DNA from: a virus
Taxonomy: Duplodnaviria > Caudoviricetes
DNA length: 64,000 bases
Virus record (IMG/VR): IMGVR_UViG_3300037484_000435
Span: 320,001-384,000 of that record
Strand: one strand, 5' to 3'
Shown: one piece after another, positions 1 through 31,042 of the stretch
How positions within the stretch are numbered: the stretch's first letter is position 1
Layout of the letters: each line of letters opens with the position of its first letter
Translations under genes and position numbers: made by a program
The notes under the pieces: model-generated
What the model was told of the DNA's origin: nothing
Database searches by the model: none
What the model saw: only the letters and a program-made list of their open reading frames with translations

Positions 1-3000
1 CCAGGAACAGTATCCATAGCAGTTCCCCAGACCTTTTTAGTAACATCCGTTGCATAAGGAAAAGCGGACTCATCCCATTTTCTAAAGGTAGGTCGTGCAT
101 AACCTTCAAAATCTTTCATACCAGACCAAGCTGCTGAACCAGCGGCATTTACACCACGCTTAGCCAAATTCGTAACACTATCAGGAATATATTCAGAAAT
201 TTTCCCCACTAAGTCTTTTGTAGCTGACCAACCTTCACCTAAAAGAGCTGTACCCGACTTAACTATTTCTGAAGATCCTATAGTCTTTATAGCTCCCACA
301 AGAGCTTCAACAATAGGAGCAATCATTGGGTAACCAGTATAAGCTGTAGCCCCAGCCATGGTTCCTGCGCCCAAACCACCAAGGCCCAGCATTGTCATCG
401 AAGCAGGTAACGCATATGTTGCTGCAAGAGCTGCTCCGCCACCAATCAGGGCCGCTTTACCTAGCCCACCAGCCATGCGTCTCCATAAAGGCTTCTTTTC
501 ATCAGCAGGAGCATTTAAACGAGGTTCATCGAGGTTTTCCTCTCCTTCTGCGGGCGTATTGCTACGGTAAGTTTTTTCAGATGGAGTAAATAATCCCCCT
601 ATCCCACCAGTTACCGCACCCCATAGCGGGGCCGCTTTTATAACACTGGAACGAGAATCTAGAAAACTTTGTGGTAATAGATTGCTACCTTCAAGCAAAC
701 TTGACGCACCATACCACCCAGCACCAGCAATTGAAGACACAGCAGCACCAGAAAGAGCACCTTTTAACATTTTCCATATAGGTCTTTCTTCATTAGTAGG
801 ATTCAACTGTGGAGTTCTTGACACCCCCGCTGATGTTAATCCAGAAAGGGCCCCAACCGCTGCTCCCGCCCCCGTAGCTAAAGGTATGTGTTGGAGACCT
901 AGTCCATAAGCCATACTTCCCACTATAGGGGCAACAGCTGCCCCTATCAAAGCCGATCTCCCTGCACTTTCTAAAAACCCAGTAGGTTCCTGACGTAAAG
1001 GAGCGTAAGCTTGGGTACCAGGTGTTAATCCTCTATTCATAGCAATGTTTGCTAGTCTATCGGCGGGCTTGTTTTCCTCACGAGGAACATAAGAGAAAGA
1101 CACATTGTCAAATTGTGCTGCTAGCACATCCGCCTGAGCCTTAAGTTCTTTTATCTGCTCATTCTTCACCTTGAACTCATTTCTCATCTGTCCTACCATA
1201 ACTTCAGAGTCTGATCTTACTTTTATGTTTTGAGCGGAATTCTTAAGAGCCTCCTGTAAACCCATAATGAGGCCTTGGTACTCAGCAGCCATAGAAGTCA
1301 TTTCCCCAAGATATTTATTGACTTCTGCAATAGTCTGTCCCTTAGGATTTAATAGGACAGCACCAGCACCAGAAGGTCCCGGATTACCACGGGACCCAGC
1401 ATCAGTATATAGTGTATAAGGTTGTTGTGCAGGGGAATAATTCTGTAGATTTTTTCGCATAAAGGAAAGTTCTTCTTGTGGGGATGTCCCGATGGCCTCT
1501 CTTCCGGCTTTTTCTGCTACTAGCTCTTGTACCTTTGCGAGTTCATCCAAAACTTCTTGATCCTCATCAGTACGGAGACCTCCAGCTAGAGCCTCTTCTA
1601 GGGCATTTGCTGGCTCTTCCTCCCCCCTATCTCCGTATTTTTGCATATAATAATTCTGTATTTTCTTTGTATCTATACCAGGAAACTCTTTTCCAGACAT
1701 GATATCCTGCGCGATAGTAGGAGCGGAATAATCTATTACAGCATGCCCTTTTTCATGTTGCATTACGTTCATAAAAGCACGCATCTCTGCTCTATTTGTA
1801 GGGGAGAATAAACGGATATTCCCATCTTGGTAACGGCCTTCCCCTGCACCAAGCGTATCGTCTATCTCAACGTTAGGACTAAAACCATAAAACTGTTTAG
1901 CCCTTTCAGGATCCCTTTCCTCCATTGGCCTTACTTTGGAAACTAGCCACTGTCCTTTTTTAGTATCTTCGCCCTTCGGCTCGTAATTAAGAATATTGTA
2001 AGTACCATCAACCAAACCTTTAACGCCTTCCAACCTTACTGTGACATACCCTTCTTTTACACTTTCCAAAGTAGCCTTTCCTGTATCATAAGTTGCCATA
2101 TGACCAGCTCCATAAAAACCTTTGGGAATATCATATTCTCCTTTCTGGTAATAATCTATTGCGTGGTGTGCTGTAGGACCAATTGCTAATCTAGGCTTTC
2201 CTTTTTCAGTAGGCATAAACTCTGGTACCGCCCATGACTGAAGCTGACCACCAACCTCAATTCTCATATCATGGTGTGGCCCTGCCCTAAAGGCATCGTG
2301 TTTATGAACTACAAATCGGCCCACATCCCCTTCTTTGGCTTCCCCAGGAAACATAAATCCTGCCTCTTTAGAAATAGGCACTGCCTCTGGGTACTTAGGA
2401 GCTTGTCTCCTTGTATTTAGAACTAGAACTGGATCGTAAGGTAACTCAGGCATTCCTTTACCAAATATGCCTTTGCGTAATTCCTCTTGTGTAGCTACAA
2501 CTGCATCTTTGGCAAATGAAGGTATTGGCTCTACACTGGGAGCCTGGAGTAGGAACTTAGTTCCTTTCTTAAATTCTCCTGCCCGCTCAGGGGGCTGATA
2601 GAATTTATCATCTAAACCTTTAAGGTATTCCTCCATACGCTTCTTAGAGGTTTCTACAACGGGCCAATCCTCTGGATAGAGACCTTCCTGCTTTTGGACA
2701 AGAGATGGCGAAAAATTCTTGTAAGAGTCCTGATCTATCTCTTCTTCAGTTTGATATGCGGGAGAATATGATCGCTTTCCTTCTAACACCCTCGCAAAGC
2801 GTTCTTCTATTCTCTGTTCCGCGGATTCTTGTGTTCTCCAAGGATAACGGTTTTCCTCATTAACCAGATAATCTTTGGTTTTGAGTTTAAGCATTCTTGG
2901 GAAACCTGTTTTTGGATCAATTTCACCCAAGGCTTTAGCAACTACACCCTCCTCTATGCCCTTAAATTGATCTTGTTGAGTATACACCTTTTGTGCTAGG

Positions 3001-6000
3001 TCTTTATCAACCTTACCACGATAAAGTTCATCTACAGTCTTCAACTTCAAGTCATCTGCTAGTTTTTTGAACTCGTCTACAGGGAGAGGTTTATTAGCAA
3101 CCTTGGCATCAAACCAAGCTAACTGGTCTTTCTTTCCTCCCCATTCACCAAACAAATCTACTCGATGTCCTATATCTTTTGAGTATTTCTTAAGTTCAGG
3201 AGCCAGCCCTTCTTCCATCTGTTCAATAAAAGGTTTGTATAGTTTATTAGCAGTATCGGGGTCTAATACTTTATTGCGTGTAGCATAGCCTATCTCGGTA
3301 TTTCCCCAACGTAGAGGAACAGCACTCATTTTGATTTGATGACCATGACTCTTATACTGTGCCGATCCCTCAACGTCTTGTTCTAAGAATTTTGGGTCTT
3401 CAAAACCTGTTTTAATATGGGGGTAATCGGCTGGACTAAACCCACGAACAGCACGCCTGATGTTTTCAGGTGCTTTTTCTCCAAAAGCTTCTCCAGGTGT
3501 AAATGGGGGTCCACCAAAAGGCCCTCCAGGAGATGGCATAGTAGTGGATAATCCACCCCTAACGGACTTCTCTTCTATTGCTTTAAGAAACTCATTTCTA
3601 GATTTCTGGAATCTCATTGTATAAAAGTCTGGTGGTTCTATATCCAGTTCCTTCAGAATATTCTCCATTCTCTTCTTGAATACCATATTAATATAGCGAG
3701 TGTAGCCACGATTCTCACCATATATTCCTTCAGCATAAAGGGCTTCCAGAGGCTTTTCAGATTCGCTAGTTATCTTCTTAGCCTTCTGATCAAAATGAAA
3801 TATACTCTGCCAATCTTGTGATGTTAAATCAAAGGCACTATTAAAAATCTTTTCAACATCATTTCTTACTTTATGTGTGGGTTTAGATAGAATCTCTTCA
3901 AGGTCAACACCCCCACCAGCACTTGGCCTAAAAGGCCACATGGACTGCTCAGCGGAACGTGGTATTGCGGTATTCACACGAGATTCAACTTGGCTTAGCC
4001 GTAGATCTTCCCAGTCCTTTGGTAATCCTGCTCCTATGTGTTCAAGAATCTGCCCCTGGCGTTCCTTTATCACATTATTTATAAAATGTGTAACTCCTCG
4101 GCTTCCTCCGTAAACGCCCTCATTGCGCAAGGAAGAAATGACATCCTGATATGGTGTATCCTCGGAAGGAGACTTCATCCCACGAAGAACTGGGTGTGCT
4201 TTGTACACGCTCTGCCAATCTTCTTGGCTCAGCGTTTCGGTATTTTCCTTTACCGCTTCCTTCCAACTTTCTTTAAATAACGGGGAGAATGATGCAACAA
4301 GGTCCTGAGTTTTACCCCTTCCTACAAGTCCCTCAGATATTTGTGCAGGAAGGTTGACACCAGTTAAACCAAAAAAGCCTGAGCGGGAAGCTCTCCTAAG
4401 TGGGCCAATACCAGAACCATAACCAGCTTCCCCCGCAATATAAGAAGCTGAGGCCTCTTCGACTGCTTGTTTTCTAAACGCCGGAATTTTACGCAAGGCT
4501 ACGGTAACCTCTATATTGCTCGAATCTTCCATAGAACCCAAACCCGCCCCTTCTAAGGCTTTCTTAACCATAGGGCCGTGCTCTCTGCTATATACTAGTT
4601 TTTCAATTAAACTATCTACTTCTTTTGCATGGCTTGACTTGGGATCAGAAACCCTGTCAATCACAGATCTTAAGTAATCAGCTTTAACTCCTTCCCCCAT
4701 ATCTATGTACTTCAGAGCAGTTCCTCTTCTGATAATCTCGTGGGCTCGATCCATAGCCTGTGTTAACTTGTCGTTGGCCGTAGACCTCTCATCTGGGTTA
4801 CGAGCAAGCATACGTTCACGGAGTGCATCTTCAAAGGCAGTTTTTATTCCACTATCAATATAAACTTGGCCAGTTTCTTTGTCATAAGAAAATTTTCGTC
4901 CCGCTTTAGATTGTTCTCCATAAATTCCTTCGGTCTGCTTCGAAAAAGTTTGCACCTGATTAAGTAAACCCTCCACCTGATACACTTCTTTATTCATTAT
5001 TTTCATCATCTGGTCATGTGCCACAACAAACTCTTCATAAGCTTTCATTGCGGGACTTTCAAAGGTGTATTTCTTCTGTTCAGTGGCCCCACCAAAAGTC
5101 CCTATCATTTCTGGAATTTCTATCCCTTTACCCTTTTTATTTCTTAATACATAGTCAAGCACTTCAGCTTGGGATAACGCAGGACCCCCAGGAGTGTATT
5201 CATTTTCTATATCTGATCGTTTAGCATAGGACCCTACGGCCATCGCGGCCCCACCGGAAGTTTTCATCTTATACATAGGTTGCAAACCCCTATATAAAGT
5301 AGAAGTACTTATTCCAGGTTGTATAATTTCCTCACTAATATTCCTATAATCCCCCTTCCTCACTTTCTCGATACCTTCTCCCATAGCAGCAATCCTAAAA
5401 CCTATTTCTTCTTTAGATAATTTCTTACCTGATGCTTTTCGCATCTCGTCTATTACCAGCTGTGTAATATCATCTTTTCCTACTAAAGCTTGGAAATCAC
5501 CTTCGTTAAATTTGAACTTGGTTTTGAACCCTAAAGTTTGGAGTGTTTCATCCTCATAACCTGGCTTCCCTGCAACGAATCTAGCAAGACCAAGAGATCC
5601 TTTTTTAGATAAGGTGGCGTCCCCCGCCAAACCTGTTGCGTAAAGTTCCTTTACATTAGCAACGGACATACGCATCATTTGGTCAAAAACATTTTCAAAC
5701 ATAGCACGGAAAGATGTTTTCTGTATAATATCTTCTATTAATTGCTCCCGATCTTTGCCCTTTGTGGATATACCGTATTCTTTAGATTCGCTCTGTAATT
5801 GTTCTAAAGTGAGAGGACGTAAAAACTTTAGTCTGTATTTACGCATTGATTCTTCTTGTTGTCCAAAAAGAGCTTCCTCACCAGCGCCTTGCATACCACC
5901 TTTATATTCTCCCCAGCCACCGTGACCGGCATCAAGAGCCGATGTTAGCTGATCCAAATTACCAGTGAAAAAAGCTTGTTGAACTTTGGGGCTTAAATCA

Positions 6001-9000
6001 GAACCAGCGGAACCATGCTTACCACCAATAACTCTCTGGATAGTATCCCTCAAGAATTCCCCTAAAAGAAGATTGTAGTTCTCATGCAACTTGGGGGTCA
6101 ACCCCAACCCCTTCGGGTCTGCCCCTCGATACAATAAACCTATACGGTTAAAGGCTTCATATCCTTGTCCCATATCAACTTTATGCACGAAATGTTTAAG
6201 GGAGTCTTCCGCAATTGTTGAGGGGTCTGTTTCATGTATATCTAGAAGATTTTTCTTGGCGGCTTTAGTAATCTCATCAACGTAGTTCATGCTCTTCCAG
6301 CCGGGAGACGACGCCGACAACCTATACTTCAAACTAGCAGGTAATTCCTCTGGAGATAGTTCAGCGCCCTTAACTCCCAACGAGACCGCAGATTCAGGAA
6401 CATTGCTCTTTTGAATATTTTCGTGCATAAACCTACGAGTTGTACCATAATCTTTTAGTTGCATCTCATGGATACGTTTGAGTTCTTCGTTAGCTTTCTG
6501 AGTAGTAGCGGCATGAATAGAAATCATATCACCATCAAAATCTAGCGTCATACTGGCTTCATGGTAAAGCGGTAATAAATCTTTTGAAACTTTATCGATT
6601 TTATCAATATCGTCTTGTAACTTACCGACCTTAGAGGTGAATTTACCTCCGCTAGTTTCAAGTTCATTTTCAATCTCTTTGACTTTCTTTTCCCTTAGTT
6701 CTTCCAAAGCGTCCCGAGTTTTATTCATTGTACTGATAACTGGGTAATCCCCGATAGGTAAACCAGGAACAGCAACAGACCCAGACAAATCTTTCATCAT
6801 ATCATCCACCGTTAATTTTAGAGAACGGTAACTAAATTCATCTGTAGTAGGTTGTCTATTAATAAGAGCATAAACATCATCAACCTTACTTTGTAAATCA
6901 GGGGTCGCCATACCTGCTTTTTGTAACTCCACCAAATCTTTTCTACCAATACGTACTTCCCCTTTACCGATCCATTGTGAGGGGTGTTCTTTTTTGAATT
7001 CTCCCACATTCTTGAGAGATTCAGACATTTGACCTATTAATTCCTCGGAGCCAGGTATTTCTTCTTTGAACTCTTCCAAACGCCCAATACCAGACCTAAT
7101 AGCCTCACTAGGGTCATAAGGCCTATGCTGTGCCGTCAAGTATAAGGCTGGTATCTTCTTCTTCATAATGGTATTTGAAATTAACCCACCTCTACCGTAA
7201 ACTGTGCCGGACAATTCTTCATAGTAAGCCTGCAAGTTTCTCATTATTTCGCCATATTGTAAATCCAGAGCAGTTTTTGATGTGAGACCAACATTTTGAC
7301 CCCTAGCATCAAGTTTTGGTTCATATAATCTGAAATCCTTCACAATCTTACTCAATAACTCTGGGCTAACCAATTCCTTTACAGCATAATTTGGATTACG
7401 CCCCTCAGATATATCTTCGGACACTGTTTTCCCTATCATATTTGTATCTTGGGTATAGATTACTGAACCAGAAAGGAGGTCCCTCAAAAGACGTGCTCTA
7501 AAGTTTAAATTAGACACATTATCTTCGAGCTGGGAGAAGTATTTTGTATAAGCTTCACTTACTGTTATGCCCTTCTTAAAATCTTCTTCCAAGGATTTAG
7601 CGTGCTCTTCTGGCAAGCGAGAATATAAAGTTGGAAACCATGTTTTTTCTGGATTTTGAGGATCAGCGATCAAAGAAGACTTTGCGGAAAATTGTGGCAT
7701 CGGCATGTTCCCAACTAACCCTAGAGCCTGTTCCTCTAATTTTCCTAGAAGTTCTTTTTTAAATGGTATATCACGAACAGGATGAATTCTATTATAGAAA
7801 TCCCCTAACATAGTATCTACAAAAGTTTTTTGTATTTCTTCCACTTGTGGGGTCTTAGCTGGTTTTTGTAAAAGAGAGTGTTTCCTTACAGACTCGATTA
7901 ATTCAGATAGGTAACGGGCATCCGGAGAAGGTAAGATTTCTCCAGTTTCTGAAGTTACATATTGCCTTGCTTTAATTTCTGGAATTTCAATTAATTTTTT
8001 AATTGGCACCACCTGCTTTCCCTCTTTAATTCCAGCCGCTACCTCTTCCTCACGAGCCTTGCTTACTTCTTCGGAAGGTTCTGGCAAACGAAGCACCATA
8101 GATGGCCCATACTTGAAGGCGTCAAAAATGGTTCGAGATAAATCTGCTACTGTAGCTTTTCGTTTTAGTGGCGCTATATACTTGTTGGAGCCTTCATCTA
8201 CCAAGTCTTCTGGAGTAATAACTGTTTTAGACCTATCGCGTTCTAACTCTTGGCTTCGTAATTTAGAGAATGACCTGAAAGCATTTAGGTAAGCCCCAGC
8301 TTCTCTGGCATCAGGAAAGGCCCTCATTGTAAATTCATGCTCTAACGCCCCGCCTTTGGGAAATAATTTTTTGAGACCAAACCAACCATGGGGATCAACA
8401 GTCATTTTAGATTCACCAGACTCTAATTCCTCTTCTCCTTTGGATAACCAAGTTTTTGGCTCTTTCATTATCATGACATGCATAGCCCCAGCTATTGCTT
8501 TCTCTAATTTACCTTCCTTATCCAGAATAAACTCTTCCCCGTATTTTCCTTTAAGCCCTAAAATATCTTTATATAACTCGGCTAACTTACGGGCCTCAAC
8601 CCCAGAAGCTGTATTACCTACTGCCACTTTTGCTAATGGGTCCCTTTTAATTTGGTCAATTAAAGTCTCATCAGGAAGAGCAACAGATCGTAGGTTACCA
8701 ATAATATTATTCGCAATCATTTCTGCTAAATTTCCACCAATCATGCGAGATTTTTTTCCTATTCCAGAAGCAGATACTTGCAAATCTACAGGAACATCTC
8801 TGGTCAAATCTCCACCAACAACTTCCTGATATGCTTTACGTACTTTACCCATATCAGCAGAAATAGTCTTCACCTGATCCGTAGCAGTCTTCGCACCCTT
8901 TAACACACTCGTCGGAGCTAGTCCTAATCCCAGCACTTTCGATACAAATTCACGCCTCTCGTCTACACTCGGGGCATCCTCTCCTGTGAGCTTGCCTGTC

Positions 9001-12000
9001 CCGTATTCGATCGGTGTAATCTTCAAATCCTTTAAATGCTCAGAAGACATCATAATAAGATTTCTTGTACCTTTTATCATTTCTAAGGCTTTCTTTGCTT
9101 CAGCGGGATCCACATCCTTCCTAGCCTTAATCATTTCAGATAAAAGTTCTTCAAATGTTTTTGGGACCTCTCTCAGCATACCAATATCAGAAAACTCTAA
9201 TCTTGGGGCCATGCCTTTCTTAGCCTTTTCCACAAGAGAAGATTCAGCTTCAGGACCCATTCTTCTGGCCACTGTTACAGCGACCCCCTTCATAACCTGT
9301 CCCGTTGATATCTTTCGTGTCTCATGGCCAAGGTAAGCATTGAGAAGCTCTACAATGTTTTCTTCCACTGGGCCTTTGGGTGATTGAGACCACCGTTTTA
9401 CTATATCTTTTACGAATGTCTGGTCCGCAAGCTCTTTGGATTGTATGGGTGCTCCAAAAATATCGTGCCCCACTTCCTCTAGATACTTTATTATACTCCC
9501 CTTTAACGCCTCTGGGGTAGATTTAAGTGATGGCACAACCATCTTCTTAAATTTAAAGGTGGCTAATTCCTGTAACCTCTTACCTATTTGGTATAAATCC
9601 TCGTACCCTGCAGAGACATCCTTTAACACAGTTGTTACATTCAAACCTGTTCCATAAGGCCCCCATTCTCCGCCCTTAATAAAGCCATGAGCTTTACGAG
9701 AACGAATAGCATTAAACTCTGGACCAGCTAGAGAATCCCAAGCAGCCCCAGTAGGACGAGCCGGATTAATAGAATAGCCAAAGGCCTCAGTTTCTCTGGG
9801 ATCGTAAGAAGCGAATGGTTGTAAACGTTTACTACGAAACATAGACTCCATGAAATGATCACCAAAATCTCTCTTGCCCGCTGCCGACGCTTCATTAAGA
9901 CCCACAGTTGCTAACTTCTCAATAGTGGGGCCCAACCTCCGTTGAGAAGCTTCGGTTTGCCGTAGAAATTCTTTCTGGACTAACTCTTCCATATCTAGAT
10001 TTCGTGTAACAATAAAACGTCGTAATGCTTGCAAATCAACAGGTACTCCGTAAGAACTTGGTCCCGCGTCTATACCAGGAATTTTTGGTTGAATAGTAGT
10101 AACTTTGGCCCTACCATACACTTCATGTTTTTGCATCGCCTCATGCTCTTCCGGAACCTTCTCTTTAATTGGGTCAAACACTTTCTTAAACCTTTGTGGC
10201 AGTAGCTCTTGAAAATATGATTCATTTCCTAGACGGCCAGCAGACGAAAGACTATTCCTAAGTTTCTGCAGTTCATTACTGTCAGTCTTAGAGTAAGTTG
10301 CGGCACGGTTTAAAAGGCTATAAAAATCTACAGGTCGATATGTAGAAAACTGCTCCAATGTACGTTGCCATGCTCTATTTTGGTAATCGGACGCCCCAAA
10401 TTTTTTAAGTTCCTGCTCTTTAGTCTTTTGTAATTCTGATTCTAATTTCTCAGTTGGGATACGGGAAACTGCCTCACCGCTCTTTAGAGATTCTTTTCGC
10501 AAATATTCTAAAACAGGATCAGGTAATAATTCATACCTAGCTCCTTTACCTACTAGTGGCACCATCTTAGGCCTAAACTCTTTTTCTAATTTATCAGGAA
10601 GTTTAACTTCTCCACTAATAACGCTTTCTTTTAGAAGTCGCTCCCTAGTAGATTGTATAGCCTCCCGAAGAGCACTCTCGTATTGTTCATTGAACTGTTG
10701 TCTTAATTCGTCGATTGCGGTTAATGACTTGGAAGCTCTAGGTCCTCTAGTGTCCTTTATAAATTTTGAAACAAGATCAAAAGAATTTTTTACACGTTGA
10801 ACTACTTCTTCAGAAGCTCCTTCCTGACCGATACCCACACCATGTTCCTCGTGAGGACGTGAGCGCACCCAGTAATCTTTGGTTAATCTAGATAGATCTC
10901 GAATCTGCCTAGGTATGTCTTTTGGTTCTTTTCGCAGCGTCTTTACTTGTTCCATTAACGGAGCTATATACTTATCTTCCAACACATTAGGGGCAGGACG
11001 GGTTTCCAAGTACTTACCCAAGGTAAGGTATTCTCCTCGCTCTGGATCCCTAATAATTAAAGCCCCTCTTGAGCTCTTATGCACTGACGGTATTTGTATA
11101 GTCTGTCTAGTAAGGCCCTCAATGCTTTTGTTTACTAATTCAATACGTTTAGTAGCTTCTTCTGCCCCTAACTTCGCCTTCAGTTGTTGATCAACCATAC
11201 TTAGTAAGTCTTTCTGGATCTCCCGTAATCTATCAATAGAGTAGGACATAATTGTTTCAGCCTTACGAGAAATTCCTTTGGATTCAATATACTGGTCTAT
11301 AGATTTTTGAATGTCCGGACCAACATCGGTTTTGACGGAAGAAGACAGTCCTTGAGCAGACATCAGGGATTGCAGTTGTTTAGCTAAAGCTTTCACATCA
11401 GTCAAACCATACTGTGCCCCACCAAACTCATTAAATGTAACACGTGGATCCCCCACATAACGACCACCTATCGGGGCACCAATTCCACGCCGTTTGCTCA
11501 TTGACTCAACATCGTGAAATTCTGGTCCAGCGGGCTCAAAAAATTGTGGTTTAGCAAAAGTAAACACCATACTTCTTTGGAATTGCTCAAAAGACCTGCG
11601 TGTAGGAATAGCCTCAACCCCAAGCTCTTTGTCAAGGTCCTCTTTAGCCTTTGTAATAGCATCCCGCATCTCAACAACTTGCTTAGCTAATTTATTACTG
11701 TGTAATTCTTTCTCTACTGCTGAAGTAATTTGAGCCAGATTACCTGTAGTAATCTCCTCAAGCTTTGATTTTAAAGCGTCAACCTGTTTTAGGGCTTCTT
11801 GGTGTGACTCATAGCCAACTTTAGACAACGCTGTATGTATTTCCTGATAAACATCGTCCATCTGGTGTCTAATACGAAGAGCCTCTTTACCCAGCTCTTC
11901 CTTAGGCAGAGCCTGTAATTTCTGTAATTTCAGTTCAAGTTCTCGTGTAAAAATGTTGGGTGCCGCGATTTCTTGCAAAGTTCTTTCAGGACGAACATTG

Positions 12001-12530
12001 ATCTTTTCACCAGAAAAAGTTTCAATTACGTTAGGGGCCTTTAGGCCTTTCACAAAATCCATATAATCTAAGAACATATCCCGCTGCTGGTCAAGGCTAC
12101 GCCGCATTCTATCCGTATGTTGTTGGCTGGAATGAAACTGGCGATCGAATTCAGTTTGCATTTCCTGCCGAGCCTGAGAATACTCTTGTTTCTTTGTGAA
12201 TTCCTTGGAAAAAGGCTTTACTGGGTCAAATTCTTTTTTGGCAGTTTGGGGAGTGATCGGCCCTGCGGCCCGAAGATCCTTATCTCGAAGCATTGCAATC
12301 TGCTCTTCAATAGCATTTAATTCTGTTTGTATGCGGGATCTGTATTCCGATAAAATGGAAGTATCGTGGGATTGGGCGTAAGATGATTTGGCATCCTTAA
12401 TATCTCTAATATTAAGAGTTTTTAAATCTTCACGTAACTTATCTACAAAACCTTTTATATTCTCATTAATAGAGTCAGATAGTTGTGCGTCAATGTTTAT
12501 TTTTATATTAAAAGTATAATCTTCAGCCAC
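1..12530 (-). CDS. Giant tape-measure-position polyprotein (>=4176 aa, 3' end outside window) carrying RNAP, ligase, phosphoesterase, peptidase and RNase H domains
   Basis: GTG start at 12530 (MAEDYTFNIKINIDAQLSDS...), with GAGGT about 12 nt upstream. I translated the frame by hand over most of its length and found no stop down to position 3. It lies directly downstream of the tail tube and chaperone genes. It is absent from the ORF track because no stop lies in the window. Confidence 0.9.
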   Translation of the reverse strand, partial: MAEDYTFNIKINIDAQLSDSINENIKGFVDKLREDLKTLNIRDIKDAKSSYAQSHDTSILSEYRSRIQTELNAIEEQIAMLRDKDLRAAGPITPQTAKKEFDPVKPFSKEFTKKQEYSQARQEMQTEFDRQFHSSQQHTDRMRRSLDQQRDMFLDYMDFVKGLKAPNVIETFSGEKINVRPERTLQEIAAPNIFTRELELKLQKLQALPKEELGKEALRIRHQMDDVYQEIHTALSKVGYESHQEALKQVDALKSKLEEITTGNLAQITSAVEKELHSNKLAKQVVEMRDAITKAKEDLDKELGVEAIPTRRSFEQFQRSMVFTFAKPQFFEPAGPEFHDVESMSKRRGIGAPIGGRYVGDPRVTFNEFGGAQYGLTDVKALAKQLQSLMSAQGLSSSVKTDVGPDIQKSIDQYIESKGISRKAETIMSYSIDRLREIQKDLLSMVDQQLKAKLGAEEATKRIELVNKSIEGLTRQTIQIPSVHKSSRGALIIRDPERGEYLTLGKYLETRPAPNVLEDKYIAPLMEQVKTLRKEPKDIPRQIRDLSRLTKDYWVRSRPHEEHGVGIGQEGASEEVVQRVKNSFDLVSKFIKDTRGPRASKSLTAIDELRQQFNEQYESALREAIQSTRERLLKESVISGEVKLPDKLEKEFRPKMVPLVGKGARYELLPDPVLEYLRKESLKSGEAVSRIPTEKLESELQKTKEQELKKFGASDYQNRAWQRTLEQFSTYRPVDFYSLLNRAATYSKTDSNELQKLRNSLSSAGRLGNESYFQELLPQRFKKVFDPIKEKVPEEHEAMQKHEVYGRAKVTTIQPKIPGIDAGPSSYGVPVDLQALRRFIVTRNLDMEELVQKEFLRQTEASQRRLGPTIEKLATVGLNEASAAGKRDFGDHFMESMFRSKRLQPFASYDPRETEAFGYSINPARPTGAAWDSLAGPEFNAIRSRKAHGFIKGGEWGPYGTGLNVTTVLKDVSAGYEDLYQIGKRLQELATFKFKKMVVPSLKSTPEALKGSIIKYLEEVGHDIFGAPIQSKELADQTFVKDIVKRWSQSPKGPVEENIVELLNAYLGHETRKISTGQVMKGVAVTVARRMGPEAESSLVEKAKKGMAPRLEFSDIGMLREVPKTFEELLSEMIKARKDVDPAEAKKALEMIKGTRNLIMMSSEHLKDLKITPIEYGTGKLTGEDAPSVDERREFVSKVLGLGLAPTSVLKGAKTATDQVKTISADMGKVRKAYQEVVGGDLTRDVPVDLQVSASGIGKKSRMIGGNLAEMIANNIIGNLRSVALPDETLIDQIKRDPLAKVAVGNTASGVEARKLAELYKDILGLKGKYGEEFILDKEGKLEKAIAGAMHVMIMKEPKTWLSKGEEELESGESKMTVDPHGWFGLKKLFPKGGALEHEFTMRAFPDAREAGAYLNAFRSFSKLRSQELERDRSKTVITPEDLVDEGSNKYIAPLKRKATVADLSRTIFDAFKYGPSMVLRLPEPSEEVSKAREEEVAAGIKEGKQVVPIKKLIEIPEIKARQYVTSETGEILPSPDARYLSELIESVRKHSLLQKPAKTPQVEEIQKTFVDTMLGDFYNRIHPVRDIPFKKELLGKLEEQALGLVGNMPMPQFSAKSSLIADPQNPEKTWFPTLYSRLPEEHAKSLEEDFKKGITVSEAYTKYFSQLEDNVSNLNFRARLLRDLLSGSVIYTQDTNMIGKTVSEDISEGRNPNYAVKELVSPELLSKIVKDFRLYEPKLDARGQNVGLTSKTALDLQYGEIMRNLQAYYEELSGTVYGRGGLISNTIMKKKIPALYLTAQHRPYDPSEAIRSGIGRLEEFKEEIPGSEELIGQMSESLKNVGEFKKEHPSQWIGKGEVRIGRKDLVELQKAGMATPDLQSKVDDVYALINRQPTTDEFSYRSLKLTVDDMMKDLSGSVAVPGLPIGDYPVISTMNKTRDALEELREKKVKEIENELETSGGKFTSKVGKLQDDIDKIDKVSKDLLPLYHEASMTLDFDGDMISIHAATTQKANEELKRIHEMQLKDYGTTRRFMHENIQKSNVPESAVSLGVKGAELSPEELPASLKYRLSASSPGWKSMNYVDEITKAAKKNLLDIHETDPSTIAEDSLKHFVHKVDMGQGYEAFNRIGLLYRGADPKGLGLTPKLHENYNLLLGEFLRDTIQRVIGGKHGSAGSDLSPKVQQAFFTGNLDQLTSALDAGHGGWGEYKGGMQGAGEEALFGQQEESMRKYRLKFLRPLTLEQLQSESKEYGISTKGKDREQLIEDIIQKTSFRAMFENVFDQMMRMSVANVKELYATGLAGDATLSKKGSLGLARFVAGKPGYEDETLQTLGFKTKFKFNEGDFQALVGKDDITQLVIDEMRKASGKKLSKEEIGFRIAAMGEGIEKVRKGDYRNISEEIIQPGISTSTLYRGLQPMYKMKTSGGAAMAVGSYAKRSDIENEYTPGGPALSQAEVLDYVLRNKKGKGIEIPEMIGTFGGATEQKKYTFESPAMKAYEEFVVAHDQMMKIMNKEVYQVEGLLNQVQTFSKQTEGIYGEQSKAGRKFSYDKETGQVYIDSGIKTAFEDALRERMLARNPDERSTANDKLTQAMDRAHEIIRRGTALKYIDMGEGVKADYLRSVIDRVSDPKSSHAKEVDSLIEKLVYSREHGPMVKKALEGAGLGSMEDSSNIEVTVALRKIPAFRKQAVEEASASYIAGEAGYGSGIGPLRRASRSGFFGLTGVNLPAQISEGLVGRGKTQDLVASFSPLFKESWKEAVKENTETLSQEDWQSVYKAHPVLRGMKSPSEDTPYQDVISSLRNEGVYGGSRGVTHFINNVIKERQGQILEHIGAGLPKDWEDLRLSQVESRVNTAIPRSAEQSMWPFRPSAGGGVDLEEILSKPTHKVRNDVEKIFNSAFDLTSQDWQSIFHFDQKAKKITSESEKPLEALYAEGIYGENRGYTRYINMVFKKRMENILKELDIEPPDFYTMRFQKSRNEFLKAIEEKSVRGGLSTTMPSPGGPFGGPPFTPGEAFGEKAPENIRRAVRGFSPADYPHIKTGFEDPKFLEQDVEGSAQYKSHGHQIKMSAVPLRWGNTEIGYATRNKVLDPDTANKLYKPFIEQMEEGLAPELKKYSKDIGHRVDLFGEWGGKKDQLAWFDAKVANKPLPVDEFKKLADDLKLKTVDELYRGKVDKDLAQKVYTQQDQFKGIEEGVVAKALGEIDPKTGFPRMLKLKTKDYLVNEENRYPWRTQESAEQRIEERFARVLEGKRSYSPAYQTEEEIDQDSYKNFSPSLVQKQEGLYPEDWPVVETSKKRMEEYLKGLDDKFYQPPERAGEFKKGTKFLLQAPSVEPIPSFAKDAVVATQEELRKGIFGKGMPELPYDPVLVLNTRRQAPKYPEAVPISKEAGFMFPGEAKEGDVGRFVVHKHDAFRAGPHHDMRIEVGGQLQSWAVPEFMPTEKGKPRLAIGPTAHHAIDYYQKGEYDIPKGFYGAGHMATYDTGKATLESVKEGYVTVRLEGVKGLVDGTYNILNYEPKGEDTKKGQWLVSKVRPMEERDPERAKQFYGFSPNVEIDDTLGAGEGRYQDGNIRLFSPTNRAEMRAFMNVMQHEKGHAVIDYSAPTIAQDIMSGKEFPGIDTKKIQNYYMQKYGDRGEEEPANALEEALAGGLRTDEDQEVLDELAKVQELVAEKAGREAIGTSPQEELSFMRKNLQNYSPAQQPYTLYTDAGSRGNPGPSGAGAVLLNPKGQTIAEVNKYLGEMTSMAAEYQGLIMGLQEALKNSAQNIKVRSDSEVMVGQMRNEFKVKNEQIKELKAQADVLAAQFDNVSFSYVPREENKPADRLANIAMNRGLTPGTQAYAPLRQEPTGFLESAGRSALIGAAVAPIVGSMAYGLGLQHIPLATGAGAAVGALSGLTSAGVSRTPQLNPTNEERPIWKMLKGALSGAAVSSIAGAGWYGASSLLEGSNLLPQSFLDSRSSVIKAAPLWGAVTGGIGGLFTPSEKTYRSNTPAEGEENLDEPRLNAPADEKKPLWRRMAGGLGKAALIGGGAALAATYALPASMTMLGLGGLGAGTMAGATAYTGYPMIAPIVEALVGAIKTIGSSEIVKSGTALLGEGWSATKDLVGKISEYIPDSVTNLAKRGVNAAGSAAWSGMKDFEGYARPTFRKWDESAFPYATDVTKKVWGTAMDTVP
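3..1000 (-). other. Gly/Ala-rich hydrophobic segments (putative membrane-inserting tape-measure region)
   Basis: In-frame translation includes SALIGAAVAPIVGSMAYGLG, LATGAGAAVGALSG, MLKGALSGAAVSSIAGAGWYG and AGGLGKAALIGGGAALAATYALPASMTMLGLGGLGAGTMAGA. Confidence 0.65.
1029..1421 (-). other. RNase HI domain (Rv2228c/archaeal-type) within giant ORF
   Basis: YTLYTDAGSRGNPGPSGAG (D at 1401-1403), AAEYQGLIMGL, VRSDSE, VPREENKPADRLAN. All four acidic catalytic residues are present. The usual TNN is TSM here. Confidence 0.88.
1575..1870 (-). other. Zincin-like metallopeptidase domain within giant ORF
   Basis: GEGRYQDGNIRLF...VMQHEKGHAVI (HExxH at 1743-1757), with a downstream EEALA (1584-1598) as the likely third zinc ligand. 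Confidence 0.72.
1935..2411 (-). other. LigD-type DNA/RNA 3'-phosphoesterase (PE) domain within giant ORF
   Basis: RFVVHKHDAFRAGPHHDMRIEVGGQLQSWAVPE...RLAI..TAHHAIDY...IPKGFYGAGHMATYDTG...QWLVSK follows the LigD PE consensus FVVQKH..RRLHYDFRLE.DGVLKSWAVPK..RLAV..EDH.LDY..IP.G.YGAG...WD.G..WLL.K. Confidence 0.88.
2870..3380 (-). other. ATP-dependent ligase adenylation domain, RNA ligase (Rnl2-like), within giant ORF
   Basis: Motif I QYKSHG (K at 3351-3353), Ia YATRNKVL, III LFGEWGG, IIIa WFDAKV, TVDELYRG, IV EEGVVAK, V MLKLKTKDY, in canonical order. No OB-fold is recognisable afterwards. Confidence 0.78.
5241..7319 (-). other. RNA polymerase beta'-like (catalytic DPBB) region within giant ORF
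   Basis: YGRGGLISNTIMKKKI (cf. KGKQGRFRQNLLGKRV), GEVRIG, YALINRQPT (6846-6860; cf. VLLNRAPT) and MTLDFDGDMISIHAATTQKANEEL (DFDGD at 6528-6542; cf. [24 protein letters not shown]). The end boundary is approximate. Confidence 0.9.
5721..5813 (-). other. SAP/Rho-N-like helix-extension-helix motif
   Basis: LTLEQLQSESKEYGISTKGKDREQLIEDIIQ matches the L..ELK...K..GI...G.K.ELI..I pattern. Confidence 0.5.
8283..9659 (-). other. RNA polymerase beta-like (second DPBB) region within giant ORF
   Basis: GLNVTTVLKDVSAGYEDLYQIGKRL (YED 9597-9605; cf. E. coli [26 protein letters not shown]), KISTGQVMKGV (K-x7-K at 9288-9314; cf. KMAGRHGNKGV), VPVDLQVSASGIGKKSRMIGGNLAE (8742-8792; cf. [22 protein letters not shown]). 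Confidence 0.85.
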
Positions 12531-12552
12531 TATTTAAATTAACCTCATGAAC

Positions 12553-13647
12553 TTATTCTTTGGTGAATTTTTTACTCTTTGAAATACCCTTAGACTTTTT
12601 AAAAGTAACGCCGTCTTGTCCTGGGTCATCTTTCAAAGAGATATCGGCAACATTCCCAGCTTTAGGATTTGCCCGATCATACTGCCTATCCAAGTATTCT
12701 GGATGCGACTGCATAATTAATCTGGTGCTCATCTTCTCCGCCGTAGAGCTACCATATTTTTTCTCGGCCCGCCTTTCTGACCTGTCTTTCGATCTTTCCT
12801 TATGCAAGTCTTCCATATACTCGTCTAGTGCTCCATCATCTTGGATGACCCAGTCATCTGGCTGGTCCTCTGGAAGCATTTCATAAATAGATTGATAATA
12901 CCCTGTCCACCATAATAAGTTCTTTTGGTCAGGTGTCAATTCTATAGACGATTTTGGAAATAAATGAAGATTACCTTTCTGTGCGACTAAATAGTCCAAC
13001 CGCCACAAATTACTTCGGGCGATATACCTGATTTCTTCTGTCGTATGTCCAACTAAATATCTTAGAAACTCAGACAGAAGTTTGTTTTTGAGCTCAACTT
13101 TCCTTTCTACCTCCTTGCAATAGGTTAGGTAATTGTCCCATAATAACTCATCCGTTTCGGGGTCAAAACAGCAAGCCCATAACATGTAGTCATATTTGGC
13201 TTGTCGTGCTCTCCGTTCAGCAGTATTTGACATCATTATCTCGCGTTTCTTCTCGGCTTGAAATAATTCTTCCTCTAACTTATTTATACTCTCCTGAATG
13301 TAAGGCTTATAAGTAACATCAATATCTACGTCTGACATTTTTCTTTTATTCATGTCAAGTAATTTATGAATAGTTTCAACTTTTTTATCATCCTTTTCAG
13401 TCCAAATTCCGCGCTCACGCATTAGTTTGTCCATTTCAGATTCATTCATAATGTTGTCTTTTTTGGCACGGAACATAACACGGCGTTCCTCTAAATTCGC
13501 AAGGAGGGTGGTGTGACGGGAAGGATAACGGAAAATAACAAAAATAGGGAAATCCTCAGAGAAAAGAGAAACCTCAACAAGTCTTTGAGAAAAACATATC
13601 TGTTCTATTGTTAGTTGTAACTCGTCAAGAGTCCAATCAATAGACAT
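12553..13647 (-). CDS. Tail assembly chaperone, GT-like (long paralogue)
   Basis: Immediately upstream of the tape-measure ORF. It shares SNTAERRARQAKYDYMLWACCFDPETDELLWDNY with the 15859-16566 protein. Probable ATG at 13647 (MSIDWTLDEL). Confidence 0.6.
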   Translation of the reverse strand: MSIDWTLDELQLTIEQICFSQRLVEVSLFSEDFPIFVIFRYPSRHTTLLANLEERRVMFRAKKDNIMNESEMDKLMRERGIWTEKDDKKVETIHKLLDMNKRKMSDVDIDVTYKPYIQESINKLEEELFQAEKKREIMMSNTAERRARQAKYDYMLWACCFDPETDELLWDNYLTYCKEVERKVELKNKLLSEFLRYLVGHTTEEIRYIARSNLWRLDYLVAQKGNLHLFPKSSIELTPDQKNLLWWTGYYQSIYEMLPEDQPDDWVIQDDGALDEYMEDLHKERSKDRSERRAEKKYGSSTAEKMSTRLIMQSHPEYLDRQYDRANPKAGNVADISLKDDPGQDGVTFKKSKGISKSKKFTKE

Positions 13648-14542
13648 GCAAATCACCATACTTTATAATTCTATAACTACTCAATAGATCCCATTTTCTT
13701 GATAACCCAAACTGAACACTATTTCGACAGTCAATTAAAAATTTCTCGGCACGATTACCCCCTAGAGTATAATAACTATAAGTCCCAAAGTCTTTTACCT
13801 GACTAATCCGAGGAGCACCATAAGTGGAATCACAAAAATTCTTAATCCAAGCCAACAGATATCTGGTTCCACAAAAGCCTGTTACTAACGTGGGTATATT
13901 GTGTTTTTTATTCCAACCAAGGGAGACCCACCCATCACCATCAAGAAGTCCTTTAAGATAGGGCAGTATCAAATCATTATCTAATAACTTAGGGGGACGA
14001 AGTGTATAGGTCTTTTGCGGAGTAATAGAAAAATTGTTATTTAAATCTATATACCACCCCTTAATCCCAGAAATACGTATTTCAGCAAAATAGGAATTTT
14101 TACTAAAACCCCTACTTTTTCGAGAATGTATTTCCCCAGAAAAATGAGTCTCTGCTTTAAAAGATCCCAAAACAGAAGCATCCTTCTCAGCCAAACCTAT
14201 AGTTAATTGGTATCTATTTGCAGATAAGTTACCATCGGCAGCAATAAAGCCTGCCCAGTAAGAGTTGTGTGTATTCGGTTCGGAAAAGTAATCCAAATCA
14301 ACGGTTGTTCTGACTCGTCCTAAAGACAAGGTGTGGGAGGTATCACCTTTTATACCCAACCTCAGAAGTCTATTACTAACCGCACCTTTGCTCTTACCAA
14401 GTTGTTGTGAAATTTCTTTACGATTAACCTTTTCATAAAGAGATAATAGTAGCCTATCTTCTTCGGGAGTCCAATGTTTATACCCCTTAGTATTCTGAGG
14501 ATTGCGTGATTGGAGTTCATCTAAGGACCATTCTACTGCCAT
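13637..14542 (-). CDS. Free-standing LAGLIDADG homing endonuclease with one Myb-like W repeat
   Basis: SYWAGFIAADG and YLKGLLDGDG motifs; WTPEEDRLL repeat; RBS GGAG. Confidence 0.85.
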   Translation of the reverse strand: MAVEWSLDELQSRNPQNTKGYKHWTPEEDRLLLSLYEKVNRKEISQQLGKSKGAVSNRLLRLGIKGDTSHTLSLGRVRTTVDLDYFSEPNTHNSYWAGFIAADGNLSANRYQLTIGLAEKDASVLGSFKAETHFSGEIHSRKSRGFSKNSYFAEIRISGIKGWYIDLNNNFSITPQKTYTLRPPKLLDNDLILPYLKGLLDGDGWVSLGWNKKHNIPTLVTGFCGTRYLLAWIKNFCDSTYGAPRISQVKDFGTYSYYTLGGNRAEKFLIDCRNSVQFGLSRKWDLLSSYRIIKYGDLHVY

Positions 14543-14605: not shown

Positions 14606-15748
14606 TTAAGCAGGGATACCTACTTGTCTTTCATATTCTTTTATCTTGCCCCATTTACGAGCAAGACGTGTTGGGGTTGGGACTTTTTGTAACTCTTTGA
14701 GGATACGGTAAGCCCTCTTTCCACCTACTTTATAAGTAAAAGCCCTTGAACCTTTTATAGGATGGACTTTAGCATTTATCCCATACATAGAAGGACAAAT
14801 TTTGTCAAATATTTCCTTCGCCCACTCAAGTAAATTTTGAGTCCCTGTGATGTTAATAATAGGATAAATATGGCCCCACTTATCGGGCTTACTAGGAAGA
14901 ATAATAGAACCGTCTCCATCAATAAGACCCACCATAAAGGCCAAACTATTTTCATAGTTAAGCTTGGTCGGTGGTTCTAATACGAGCGTTTTATTCTGTA
15001 CAATGTTAAAGTTGTTCTTTAGGTCCTGCACCATCTGTTGTGCAGAGGAAAACTCTAGAAAACTCATTGGTGTCTTACCTTTTACACTAGTTGTTAACCT
15101 AGTACGAATGTCACCAGTAAACCTAGACAAACTTGCAAAAGAAGTAAGAACCAGACTATCCTTCAAATGTAGAGAAATACGCACAGTGGCACGTTCTTCA
15201 TCAACAGACCCATCTGCCGCAATAAAGCCCGCCCAGTAAGAATTACAAACATTTGGTTCCTTAAAAAATTCTCTATTGTAATCATAACGTCTACGGTATG
15301 AAGACGGGTCTTTCTTCAAACCCAACCCACGGGCATGGCTTGTAATTGTCCGATAGTCTTTGTCTGGTATCAAATCTCTAAGCTCTGATACGGGTTTTTT
15401 TAAATAATTACTAATTAATATCTGCTCTTCACCCTCAGACCACCGAGTACGTTTTTCTAAACCAAGGGTTAAGATTTTTTTCTTAATCGCTGTTTTGGAA
15501 CGAGCAGAACAGAGACCTAGAGAGACTATCTCGTCCACTGTAAGATATTTATAATTTTCTATTAGGGAAGCAATATCTTCCTGAGACCATTCGGACTTAA
15601 TGTAGCCCCGCAACCCCAGTTGTTCTGCTTTTTTGTGAATTGATGCTTTCTTACGTAACGGTAGAAGTTTTTCCATATCTATTGCTGGTATCCTTGAATA
15701 GTTAATCATCATAATTTCAATTTCTTGTGGTGTCCATTTATTTGCCAT
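14606..15748 (-). CDS. LAGLIDADG homing endonuclease with three Myb-like repeats
   Basis: WTPQEI, WSQEDI and WSEGEE repeats; SYWAGFIAADG and FMVGLIDGDG. Confidence 0.85.
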   Translation of the reverse strand: MANKWTPQEIEIMMINYSRIPAIDMEKLLPLRKKASIHKKAEQLGLRGYIKSEWSQEDIASLIENYKYLTVDEIVSLGLCSARSKTAIKKKILTLGLEKRTRWSEGEEQILISNYLKKPVSELRDLIPDKDYRTITSHARGLGLKKDPSSYRRRYDYNREFFKEPNVCNSYWAGFIAADGSVDEERATVRISLHLKDSLVLTSFASLSRFTGDIRTRLTTSVKGKTPMSFLEFSSAQQMVQDLKNNFNIVQNKTLVLEPPTKLNYENSLAFMVGLIDGDGSIILPSKPDKWGHIYPIINITGTQNLLEWAKEIFDKICPSMYGINAKVHPIKGSRAFTYKVGGKRAYRILKELQKVPTPTRLARKWGKIKEYERQVGIPA

Positions 15749-16887: not shown

Positions 16888-17820
16888 TTAAATCTCTGTC
16901 TCCTCATCACTTTCTGAATTACCTTTGCCAAATATCTTTTTGAGCCAACGTCGAATTCTAAGAAATCTAAACCACTTTCTCTTTTCCATTTTTTCTTCTA
17001 CAATTACCTCAGCATCAATAGGCTCTATCTCCTTAACAACCACAACCAAAGGTGGCACCTCAGTAGTTTCTCTTTCTTCAAACAAGTACGTGTAGTTACG
17101 CATTTGTTCTTTGTAGAGCTCTGTTGCATGTTGGTATAAACGTAAGTCTAGTTGATTGCGGTCCTCAATTAACTTAATTACTCCTTTTGGTAATTCTTCC
17201 TTAGTTAATCTGTCAGAAACATTAACCATAGGGAGGTTAACTTCCGGCCACCCTAATTTATGTGAACAAATTTTTATAAAACTCGGTAACTCCTCATACA
17301 AACTGAAAAAGGTAAAGGCATCTGATAGACGGGCTTTAGCATAAGCAAACATCAATTTTTTACTACCCGCCCGTAAAAAAGAGGAAAGAACTTGCGTTTG
17401 AAAATCAGACATGCCCATCTCATACACCATATCCTCACTACGCAAAATTTCCTCTAGTGAAAACTGTAGAGCTTTCTGGTGTAATGCATGATCCTCTCGG
17501 CCTCTCAAAAAATAATACTGAGAAATGACACGGTCAATGGGCTCACGAACCACTACATATTGATTTATAGTAATTTTTAAACGGCTATAAAAAGGGTCAC
17601 AAAGCCGGTAATGCCCCAATAAAGCCTTATAATTTCCAATTGTCCCCTGCTCAATAAGAGAAAGCACTTCTCTAGCTGTAGCTTTCTTGTAAGCGTCCCC
17701 ATATATACTCCCGAGTAACTCAGAGATGGAATTCCCCGCGGTTTTCGGCATGTGAAAAAATAATTGTAAATTGTTAGAGTTAAACTGCTTAGACACAAGA
17801 TTAGTAAAATTGGTTGGCAT
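16888..17820 (-). CDS. Sulfotransferase family 2 protein
   Basis: 5'-PSB-like FFHMPKTAGNS and 3'-PB-like VVREPIDRVISQYYF. Start at MPTNF (17820) with an AGGAG RBS. Confidence 0.8.
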   Translation of the reverse strand: MPTNFTNLVSKQFNSNNLQLFFHMPKTAGNSISELLGSIYGDAYKKATAREVLSLIEQGTIGNYKALLGHYRLCDPFYSRLKITINQYVVVREPIDRVISQYYFLRGREDHALHQKALQFSLEEILRSEDMVYEMGMSDFQTQVLSSFLRAGSKKLMFAYAKARLSDAFTFFSLYEELPSFIKICSHKLGWPEVNLPMVNVSDRLTKEELPKGVIKLIEDRNQLDLRLYQHATELYKEQMRNYTYLFEERETTEVPPLVVVVKEIEPIDAEVIVEEKMEKRKWFRFLRIRRWLKKIFGKGNSESDEETEI

Positions 17821-17923
17821 CTGCCCTCTCCTTGTATGATCCCCATCTACCCTTCCTTTAAAAGGTGGGATGATACTGGAGACCAACATAGATCCCCAGT
17901 ATCAGTTAAATTACAACCTTTAA

Positions 17924-31023: not shown

Positions 31024-31042
31024 TGTAGTGCCTACCTCCACC

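Follow-up and report, generated by a model that had tools for sequence, protein, structure and literature searches.

A predicted 14,711-residue phage tape measure protein with RNA polymerase motifs and a putative RNA-repair cassette

Introduction

The giant gene described here lies on the minus strand of a 64,000-nt stretch of viral DNA (the window; Duplodnaviria, Caudoviricetes), which corresponds to G000:C1:320001–384000 of the 545,322-bp IMG/VR virus record IMGVR_UViG_3300037484_000435 (CheckV completeness estimate 100%). The phage is uncultured and has been met in metagenomes only. The closest described counterpart of the gene product is gp96 of Thermus phage P23-45. Chaban et al. (2024) showed that gp96 is a 5,002-amino-acid (aa) tail tape measure protein (TMP) whose N-terminal 1,200 residues form a two-barrel RNA polymerase (RNAP), with the DFDGD motif at residues 779–783 and a connector at residues 613–679 (PMC10770324). 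This polymerase is flat and lacks a clamp, a compact form that supposedly permits passage through the tail, and it has no detectable likeness to other RNAPs outside the motif (PMC10770324). It was studied biochemically, was detected in virions by western blot as part of the full-length protein, and transcribes the pre-early genes. The TMP-fused virion RNAP was shown for one Thermus phage family and was presented as unsuspected (PMC10770324).

Other large virion proteins also carry polymerases. The gp66 of phi14:2, a crAss-like phage, is a single-chain two-barrel virion RNAP, whereas gp50 of phage N4 is T7-like and not two-barrel; both are fusions to large proteins of unknown function and are not described as TMP fusions (PMC10770324). 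The polyvalent proteins (Iyer et al. 2017, cited in PMC7824862) are, in the account given in the latter paper, very large multi-enzyme proteins that presumably enter the recipient along with the injected DNA. They are separate injected proteins there, and typically carry methylase, helicase, ART or GNAT-type conflict domains (PMC7824862).

A first-pass annotation of the window, made by reading the letters, had proposed that one chain in the tape measure position joins RNAP barrels to several RNA-processing domains, and had named gp96 as precedent, which the publication bears out. The follow-up analysis favours, with a probability of about 0.7, the reading that the gene encodes a TMP with an N-terminal RNAP and an RNA heal-and-seal cassette, which would be delivered into the host together with the DNA.

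Results

The giant gene is one continuous frame

The open reading frame (ORF) listing gives a minus-strand ORF at window 3..12530, with a GTG start at 12530, 4,176 codons inside the window and an open 3' end. The first-pass annotation had seen this frame run off the window edge and had put the chain at more than 4,100 aa. The open frame was confirmed, and the length was found to be understated. When the frame was followed through the 545-kb record, it continued stop-free from genome position 332530 down to 288395, which amounts to 14,711 codons (44.1 kb) without a missed stop, and the stop codon of the gene was located at L002:395–397. The remaining two frames over the same 44-kb stretch contain 998 and 1335 stops. 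At the other end, an in-frame stop stands 2 codons before the GTG and a GAGG 12 nt before it. The N-terminus reads VAEDYTFNIK here and VAEEYTFNIK in a 13,616-aa relative, which is also GTG-started.

This relative is a colinear single frame on a 211-kb IMG/VR contig (G001). The identity between the two proteins is 63% over aa 1–3844 and 23–38% beyond, so that the enzyme-bearing front is the most constrained part of the chain. A separate assembly contains a 6,667-aa fragment (P0002), which follows the chain colinearly over 3,070 residues. Window 1–12600 is covered, in 14 pieces, by Logan contigs from a single sediment-metagenome run, with 0 differing letters and 0 indels. This was the only public run found with the sequence (depth ~6x); it is perhaps the source sample, and therefore gives no independent support for the frame.

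That the giant frame is an artefact of assembly or frame calling is so improbable as to be negligible. The low depth of the only public run speaks for an artefact, as do the 1-nt frame breaks met in two distant relatives (see below). Against it stand the 0 stops in 44 kb versus 998 and 1335 in the other frames, the colinear giant ORFs in independent assemblies and the Logan contigs free of discrepancies. The 14,711-codon frame is one real gene.

The protein belongs to the tape measure proteins

Judged from its sequence family, the 14,711-aa protein is a true tail TMP. The PF10145 (PhageMin_Tail) core was found at aa 5701–5898 (L003:11837–12430), outside the window, with 93.8 bits versus a cut-off of 33.2 (E 1.7e-26). 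When this core was used in tblastn, annotated tape measure proteins were matched in 150 phage records. Upstream and on the same strand as the TMP gene lie a terminase (window 49358–51130), a portal (47313–49337) and a major head protein (29938–31041). The core in the same chain and these upstream genes agree with the tape measure position that had been proposed. The best matches of the terminase and of the TMP core, both weak, are 80-kb Bacillus siphophages, which gives no more than a hint on the tail type.

Twelve hydrophobic, glycine-rich segments are distributed along the chain. The first of them (aa 3861–3879, a predicted membrane-type segment) belongs to a Gly/Ala-rich (30%) hydrophobic region at aa 3840–4176 (window 3..1013, minus strand, as are all features of the gene given below), which is the region that had been read as Gly/Ala membrane segments. 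The N-terminal region (aa 1–900; 9831..12530) is highly charged (38% D/E/K/R/Q) and 63% identical to the 13,616-aa relative, and had no family match in Pfam or PHROGs. A coiled coil had been assigned to this region and is kept here as a possible feature; the domain order proposed for the chain stands. No internal repeats were found by self-BLAST of the protein.

A DnaJ J-domain was observed in the C-terminal quarter of the TMP at aa 12582–12638 (L002:6617–6787, which is G000:C1:294617–294787; Pfam 3.8e-13), with its HPD at 12609–12611. Such a domain might enlist the DnaK of the host for drawing the chain in, or for refolding it, after ejection. The 14,711 residues contain only 2 cysteines, at aa 11927 and 11929, which form one C-x-C. 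This cysteine depletion fits a chain that is kept unfolded or crosses the envelope.

The N-terminal module resembles a two-barrel RNA polymerase

On the evidence of colinear motifs and profile matches, the module at aa ~900–2400 is very probably a two-barrel, cell-type RNA polymerase. The beta-like barrel elements occupy aa 940–1275 (8706..9713) and comprise Y-E977-D978, K1073-x7-K1081-G-V (a block located at aa 1073–1083) and P1246-V-D...SRM...E1269, which stand in the order of E. coli beta 810–824, 1065–1075 and 1092–1115. The beta'-like barrel at aa 1885–2010 (6501..6878) comprises NRQPT at 1891–1895, an inserted helix of ~85 aa and L-D1997-F-D1999-G-D2001-x3-H, whose DFDGD loop (aa 1997–2001) lies at window 6528–6542. 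Between the barrels is a connector of ~600 aa (aa 1276–1884; 6879..8705), possibly clamp-like. Its length is conserved in the family: the beta'-type barrel follows the last beta-type motif at a distance of ~620–780 aa in all 12 family members in which the motif spacing was measured.

When PF00623 (RNA_pol_Rpb1_2) was searched over six frames of the 545-kb genome, the sole candidates were the DFDGD loop (E 0.065) and NRQPT (E 4). The two pieces are colinear, with DFDGD at profile positions 139–163 and NRQPT, 112 residues upstream, at 97–121. PF00623 was also the top Pfam family for three distant family members (E 0.004–0.1). A profile of the beta' block searched against all PDB sequences retrieved dozens of beta', Rpb1, Rpo1N and gamma chains, all at the catalytic loop (E 0.4–1.4), behind coiled-coil noise from the inserted helix.

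The family alignment was cut into five non-overlapping blocks, and each block was compared by hhalign with full-length E. coli beta or beta'. The block TFEDQIxISG, which holds E977-D978, was best aligned with beta 810–824 (YNFEDSILVSE; P 0.019), the block GRKFTTRYGSKGV with K1073...K1081-G-V was best aligned with beta 1037–1076 (GDKMAGRHGNKGV; P 0.077), and PVDxxxSxxGxGKxxRxxxxxxxE (1246–1269) was best aligned with beta 1092–1115 (P 0.14). For the R-x-P-x-T strand (NRQPT) the best position was beta' 425–446 (P 0.13), and for the DFDGD loop it was beta' 455–481 (P 4.6e-4). The five hits follow one another just as the blocks do in this protein. The Fisher combined P is 7e-5 (0.009 for the three beta blocks alone), and random top hits would land on all five of the expected elements with a chance of ~1e-7. 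By Smith-Waterman local alignment, the beta' barrel (411–485) scored z 7.2 against this protein over shuffles (0/500), and gp96 reached z 1.7 in the same test. Pairwise scores of the beta-like region against beta were not significant.

A further candidate, RKAHGFIKGG (aa 944–953) as the equivalent of beta GRHGNKG, was rejected: the pairwise match was not significant, and hhalign put the adjacent FED block on beta 810–824.

The columns that are invariant in the family, down to 17–24% identity, are the Asp triad of DFDGD, E977-D978, K1073 and K1081-G-V. The E. coli elements aligned with them are the E813/D814 pair and the active-site lysines K1065 and K1073 of beta and the aspartate triad of beta'.

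The probable polymerase-tape measure fusion extends to distant relatives

The polymerase family is rare. When HMMER was run with aa 1000–2199 over 1.84 billion representative proteins, 8 proteins were found, 5 of them fragments of close relatives and 3 distant. The members of the wider family (P0008 and P0011–P0018) are 17–30% identical to this protein and keep the same spacing of the four motif blocks. One of them, P0017, is a 1,063-aa fragment recorded at NCBI as a protein of a Candidatus Thorarchaeota metagenome-assembled genome; it is probably a mis-binned phage contig, or else hints at an archaeal host.

On an 85-kb contig (L018), a 2,174-aa polymerase ORF ends just before DFDGD, and the motif resumes in another frame, at the start of a 1,580-aa ORF that carries PF10145. 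The 1-nt frame break lies at L018:16500–16560 after AAACAAAG, within a few codons of DFDGD. On a 177-kb contig, a 1-nt break was observed just past DFDGD in a run of six A (L017:17330–17345), after which the frame continues into the TMP ORF. Both breaks resemble sequencing errors of 1 nt in homopolymers, or may be slippage, perhaps programmed, at a conserved position. Read through, these two contigs also encode polymerase-TMP fusions. The fusion is thus kept in every examined member whose contig extends beyond the polymerase. The RNA-repair cassette was seen in the close clade only.

Ligase, phosphoesterase and RNase H domains form a cassette

The enzyme domains are located at aa 3060–3835. 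The first is a nucleotidyl-transferase domain (aa 3060–3216; 2883..3353) which, by family match, is assigned to the Rnl2-type RNA-ligase family PF09414 with its motifs intact: motif I K3060-S-H-G, motif III FGEW (3127), motif IV EGVVAK (3194) and motif V LKLKTK. The Pfam score was 39.9 bits versus a cut-off of 27, and motifs I, III, IV and V are kept in two relatives. A PDB sequence search with the ligase domain alone gave no ligase match. The second is a LigD-type 3'-phosphoesterase (PE; aa 3396–3543; 1902..2345) with the signatures HKHD...HHDMRIE and HHAIDY. It matched Pfam LigD_N (5.3e-16; 59.2 bits versus 31.1), solved PE domains in PDB at E 4e-14 to 2e-11 (3p43, 3n9b and 2lj6 at 4e-14 to 5e-13), and TIGR02777 at 8e-21, under that family's own cut-off. 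The third is an RNase HI of the Rv2228c N-domain/archaeal type (aa 3704–3835; 1026..1421), which matched RVT_3 (2.1e-25; 89.5 bits), RNase_H (9e-11) and PDB 3hst (2e-25) and 3u3g (7e-24), and was also matched in NCBIfam. Its D-E-D-D residues D3709, E3749, D3775 and D3822 are in conserved positions, as hand-counted from the 3hst alignment. For these three domains the first-pass assignments are upheld by solid sequence-family matches with intact catalytic motifs.

Between the PE and the RNase HI lies a small domain with an HExxH motif (aa 3545–3660; 1551..1898), in which HEKGH is at 3592–3596 (window 1743–1757) and which ends with ALEEALAGG. HEKGH and ~110 residues around it are shared with two relatives, and a second, diverged copy with HEKTH was found at aa 4371, just off the window (L003:16406–16420). 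The domain had no Pfam, PHROG or NCBIfam family match, so that the peptidase named by the first-pass annotation is a motif-level assignment.

The position of the two HExxH domains, at the end of the enzyme block and ahead of the TMP core, could also suit a polyprotein that cuts itself before assembly. In that case the C-terminal two thirds would be the ruler and the enzymes would stay in the producing cell. The length of the chain points the same way: at ~0.15 nm per residue, a ruler of 14,711 aa would call for a tail of ~2.2 um. This explanation appears improbable. Members of a very divergent family all retain the N-terminal fusion, which is difficult to account for unless the enzymes are co-delivered, and in P23-45 virions the polymerase occurs within full-length gp96 (PMC10770324).

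The order of ligase, PE, HExxH and RNase H is unchanged in G001. P0002 has, in addition, a PolyA_pol head domain at aa 3344–3483 (5.6e-24), a nucleotidyltransferase of the CCA/poly(A) type that lies between the polymerase and the ligase. This insertion indicates that the enzyme cassette is modular and variable, and it favours RNA ends as the substrate of the cassette.

With the same architecture and delivery, the cassette could instead act on the incoming phage DNA, as a LigD-like ribo-patch kit for end repair, circularisation or primer processing. The polymerase would add ribonucleotides, the PE would trim to one 3' ribonucleotide, the ligase would seal, and the RNase H would clear the RNA. 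Rnl2-type ligases seal duplex nicks with a 3'-OH ribonucleotide, which suits this scheme. The PDB and NCBIfam matches of the PE are all LigD, LigD-type end-joining is the only known home of PE, and the set of polymerase, PE and ligase resembles the POL-PE-LIG triad found in LigD. No 5'-kinase, which is typical of tRNA repair, was found by Pfam/NCBIfam, which leaves the RNA heal-and-seal pathway incomplete as far as the recognised domains go. The missing kinase and the LigD ancestry of the PE make this DNA-end role the main rival to an RNA substrate. On the other side, the nucleotidyltransferase of P0002 suggests that the substrates are 3' ends of RNA or tRNA, and the ligase comes from an RNA-ligase family and not from the DNA ligases. 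Overall, a role on DNA ends seems unlikely, yet it deserves to be kept in mind, and RNA repair is preferred.

Neighbouring genes

The ORFs that adjoin the giant gene on either side are unnamed ORFs and endonuclease paralogues. The gene is flanked on both sides by at least 8 paralogues from a single endonuclease family, phrog_4645, which has a DNA-binding part of D5-like type at the N-terminus and some HNH signal. All are on the minus strand: at window 13637–14542, 14606–15748, 24316–25134 and 28359–29525, and at L004 9819–10646, 10974–11900, 12266–13246 and 13985–14797. This set has the look of mobile genes of the homing-endonuclease type that spread in a burst within the structural module.

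Two more minus-strand genes lie between the head genes and the TMP gene, one for a kinase-like protein (window 22326–23900; phrog_10912, 1.4e-29) and one for a galactose-3-O-sulfotransferase-like protein (16888–17889; phrog_3347, 1.3e-8). Downstream of the TMP gene, four very long minus-strand ORFs of 5,058, 3,404, 2,542 and 2,162 aa (G000:C1:261890–277064, 228715–238927, 241611–249237 and 222245–228731) may encode baseplate or fibre proteins.

Discussion

In the favoured reading, the chain would be assembled inside the lumen of the tail and ejected upon infection, by analogy with gp96 and with siphophage biology, and its hydrophobic segments would help to form a conduit through the envelope. 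The N-terminal polymerase would exit last, beside the leading DNA end, and would make the first phage transcripts without the host polymerase. Ligase, PE and RNase H, together with the CCA/poly(A)-type enzyme in one relative, would arrive ready-made. The cassette would most likely heal and seal broken RNA, for example tRNAs cut by host defence nucleases, while the RNase H could remove RNA:DNA hybrids formed by entry-coupled transcription and the HExxH domains may cut modules free. The presence in virions, the injection, the early transcription and the enzyme activities are all inferred from the domains and from such analogies.

Several results weigh against this reading. Each RNAP profile match is singly under the family threshold, and PF00562 (beta) gave no candidate in the whole genome. 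The polymerase region had no match in Pfam, PHROGs, PDB (phmmer and whole-region profile) or tblastn of 50,697 phage records, and ESM Atlas feature searches with aa 950–2450 and 1860–2060 gave no usable match. AlphaFold2 left both barrels unfolded, with a mean predicted local distance difference test score (pLDDT) of 49 for aa 1780–2450 (8-row alignment) and 41 for aa 850–1470 (7 rows). The connector between the barrels is ~600 aa here, versus a disordered connector of 67 aa in gp96. The cassette has the missing 5'-kinase noted above, and no tail tube, sheath, chaperone or distal-tail (Dit, Tal) gene was recognised by Pfam/PHROGs among 20 flanking ORFs. The passage of a module of at least 1,500 aa, or of the 14,711-aa chain, through a tail tube is unexplained. 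A complex prediction of aa 925–1300 with aa 1872–2045 scored 0.00 at a chain pLDDT of ~40, which speaks neither for nor against docking of the barrels. With the AlphaFold2 models unusable, the polymerase assignment relies on sequence: the two barrels of the first-pass annotation find support in motifs and profile matches that are colinear with beta and beta', and the structural check yielded no fold for either.

These points leave some room for a polymerase-like region that is a dead relic or a non-polymerase two-barrel scaffold, with early transcription by the host polymerase. The matches are limited to short motifs, the fold is unconfirmed, and the beta-type GRK..TR.G.KGV motif has decayed to TRKISTGQVMKGV in this clade. 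In addition, no second, non-virion polymerase paralogue was found in the genome, unlike in P23-45. Dead domains, however, usually lose exactly the catalytic residues that are retained here: the DFDGD Asp triad, the E-D pair and both lysines are invariant across lineages at ~20% identity, and the polymerase region is the best-conserved part of the protein. A relic or scaffold is accordingly considered quite improbable.

A bolder version of the favoured reading, which is rather doubtful, takes the whole chain as a packaged ruler of ~2 um and a self-importing takeover device. Its C-terminal part would leave first and open the envelope, and the J-domain would recruit host DnaK to ratchet the chain in and refold it in the cytoplasm. 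The N-terminal polymerase would then transcribe the incoming DNA, and the HExxH domains would free an RNA/tRNA repair kit that could counter RNA-targeting defences before phage gene expression.

If the favoured reading holds, RNAP motifs are fused to the tail ruler in a second lineage, which outside the DFDGD loop is not significantly similar to gp96 in sequence, and a tail ruler can carry further ready-made enzymes, here a set of RNA ligase, 3'-phosphoesterase and RNase H. This raises the questions of how a tail can accommodate such a chain and let it through, whether there are tails of ~2 um, and whether RNA-repair enzymes are injected by phages to counter host defences in the first minute. 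As for the novelty that had been suggested for the full combination, the literature search found no paper on a TMP with RNA ligase, PE and RNase H, or on a TMP this long; the TMP/RNAP fusion itself is published (PMC10770324).

Compared with the known systems, the enzyme cassette resembles T4 Pnkp with Rnl1/Rnl2 and bacterial LigD (POL-PE-LIG), in that an end-healing phosphoesterase is combined with a nucleotidyl-transferase ligase. Those are free cytoplasmic enzymes, whereas the domains here belong to a virion protein with a structural role and have an RNase HI beside them, joined in one relative by a CCA/poly(A)-type nucleotidyltransferase. The polyvalent proteins likewise place several early-acting enzymes in one very large chain, and none of those described in the account of PMC7824862 is a TMP with RNAP and RNA-repair domains. 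The gp66 of phi14:2 and gp50 of N4 are similar as very large injected virion proteins with a polymerase for the first phage transcripts. Going by their descriptions in PMC10770324, they differ from the protein here in the partner to which the polymerase is fused; PDB searches with the polymerase region gave no match to the phi14:2 gp66 chains.

The likeness to gp96, and to its counterparts in P74-26, G20c and TSP4, is more extensive. In both cases the RNAP, predicted in the present protein, is N-terminal in the TMP chain, a beta-like barrel is followed by a beta'-like barrel, HExxH and membrane segments lie downstream, and the similarity to known RNAPs is confined to the metal-binding loop region; the role proposed here, entry-coupled pre-early transcription, would also be the same. 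In contrast, when the family profile was compared with gp96 1–1200 by hhalign, the probability was 1.1% and the DFDGD loop alone was aligned, and the gp96 chains were not retrieved by PDB profile searches with the polymerase region. The protein is therefore like gp96 by architecture and stands outside its sequence family. In its motifs it comes nearer to the cellular beta and beta' than gp96 does (z 7.2 versus 1.7), it is about three times longer (14,711 versus 5,002 aa), and the RNA ligase, PE and RNase H cassette and the J-domain are added. P23-45 has a non-virion polymerase paralogue and none was detected here, and the carrier is a 545-kb sediment megaphage, not a phage of a thermophile. 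These comparisons support the view that the protein is a much larger, enzyme-loaded version of the published principle of fusing an RNAP to the tape measure.

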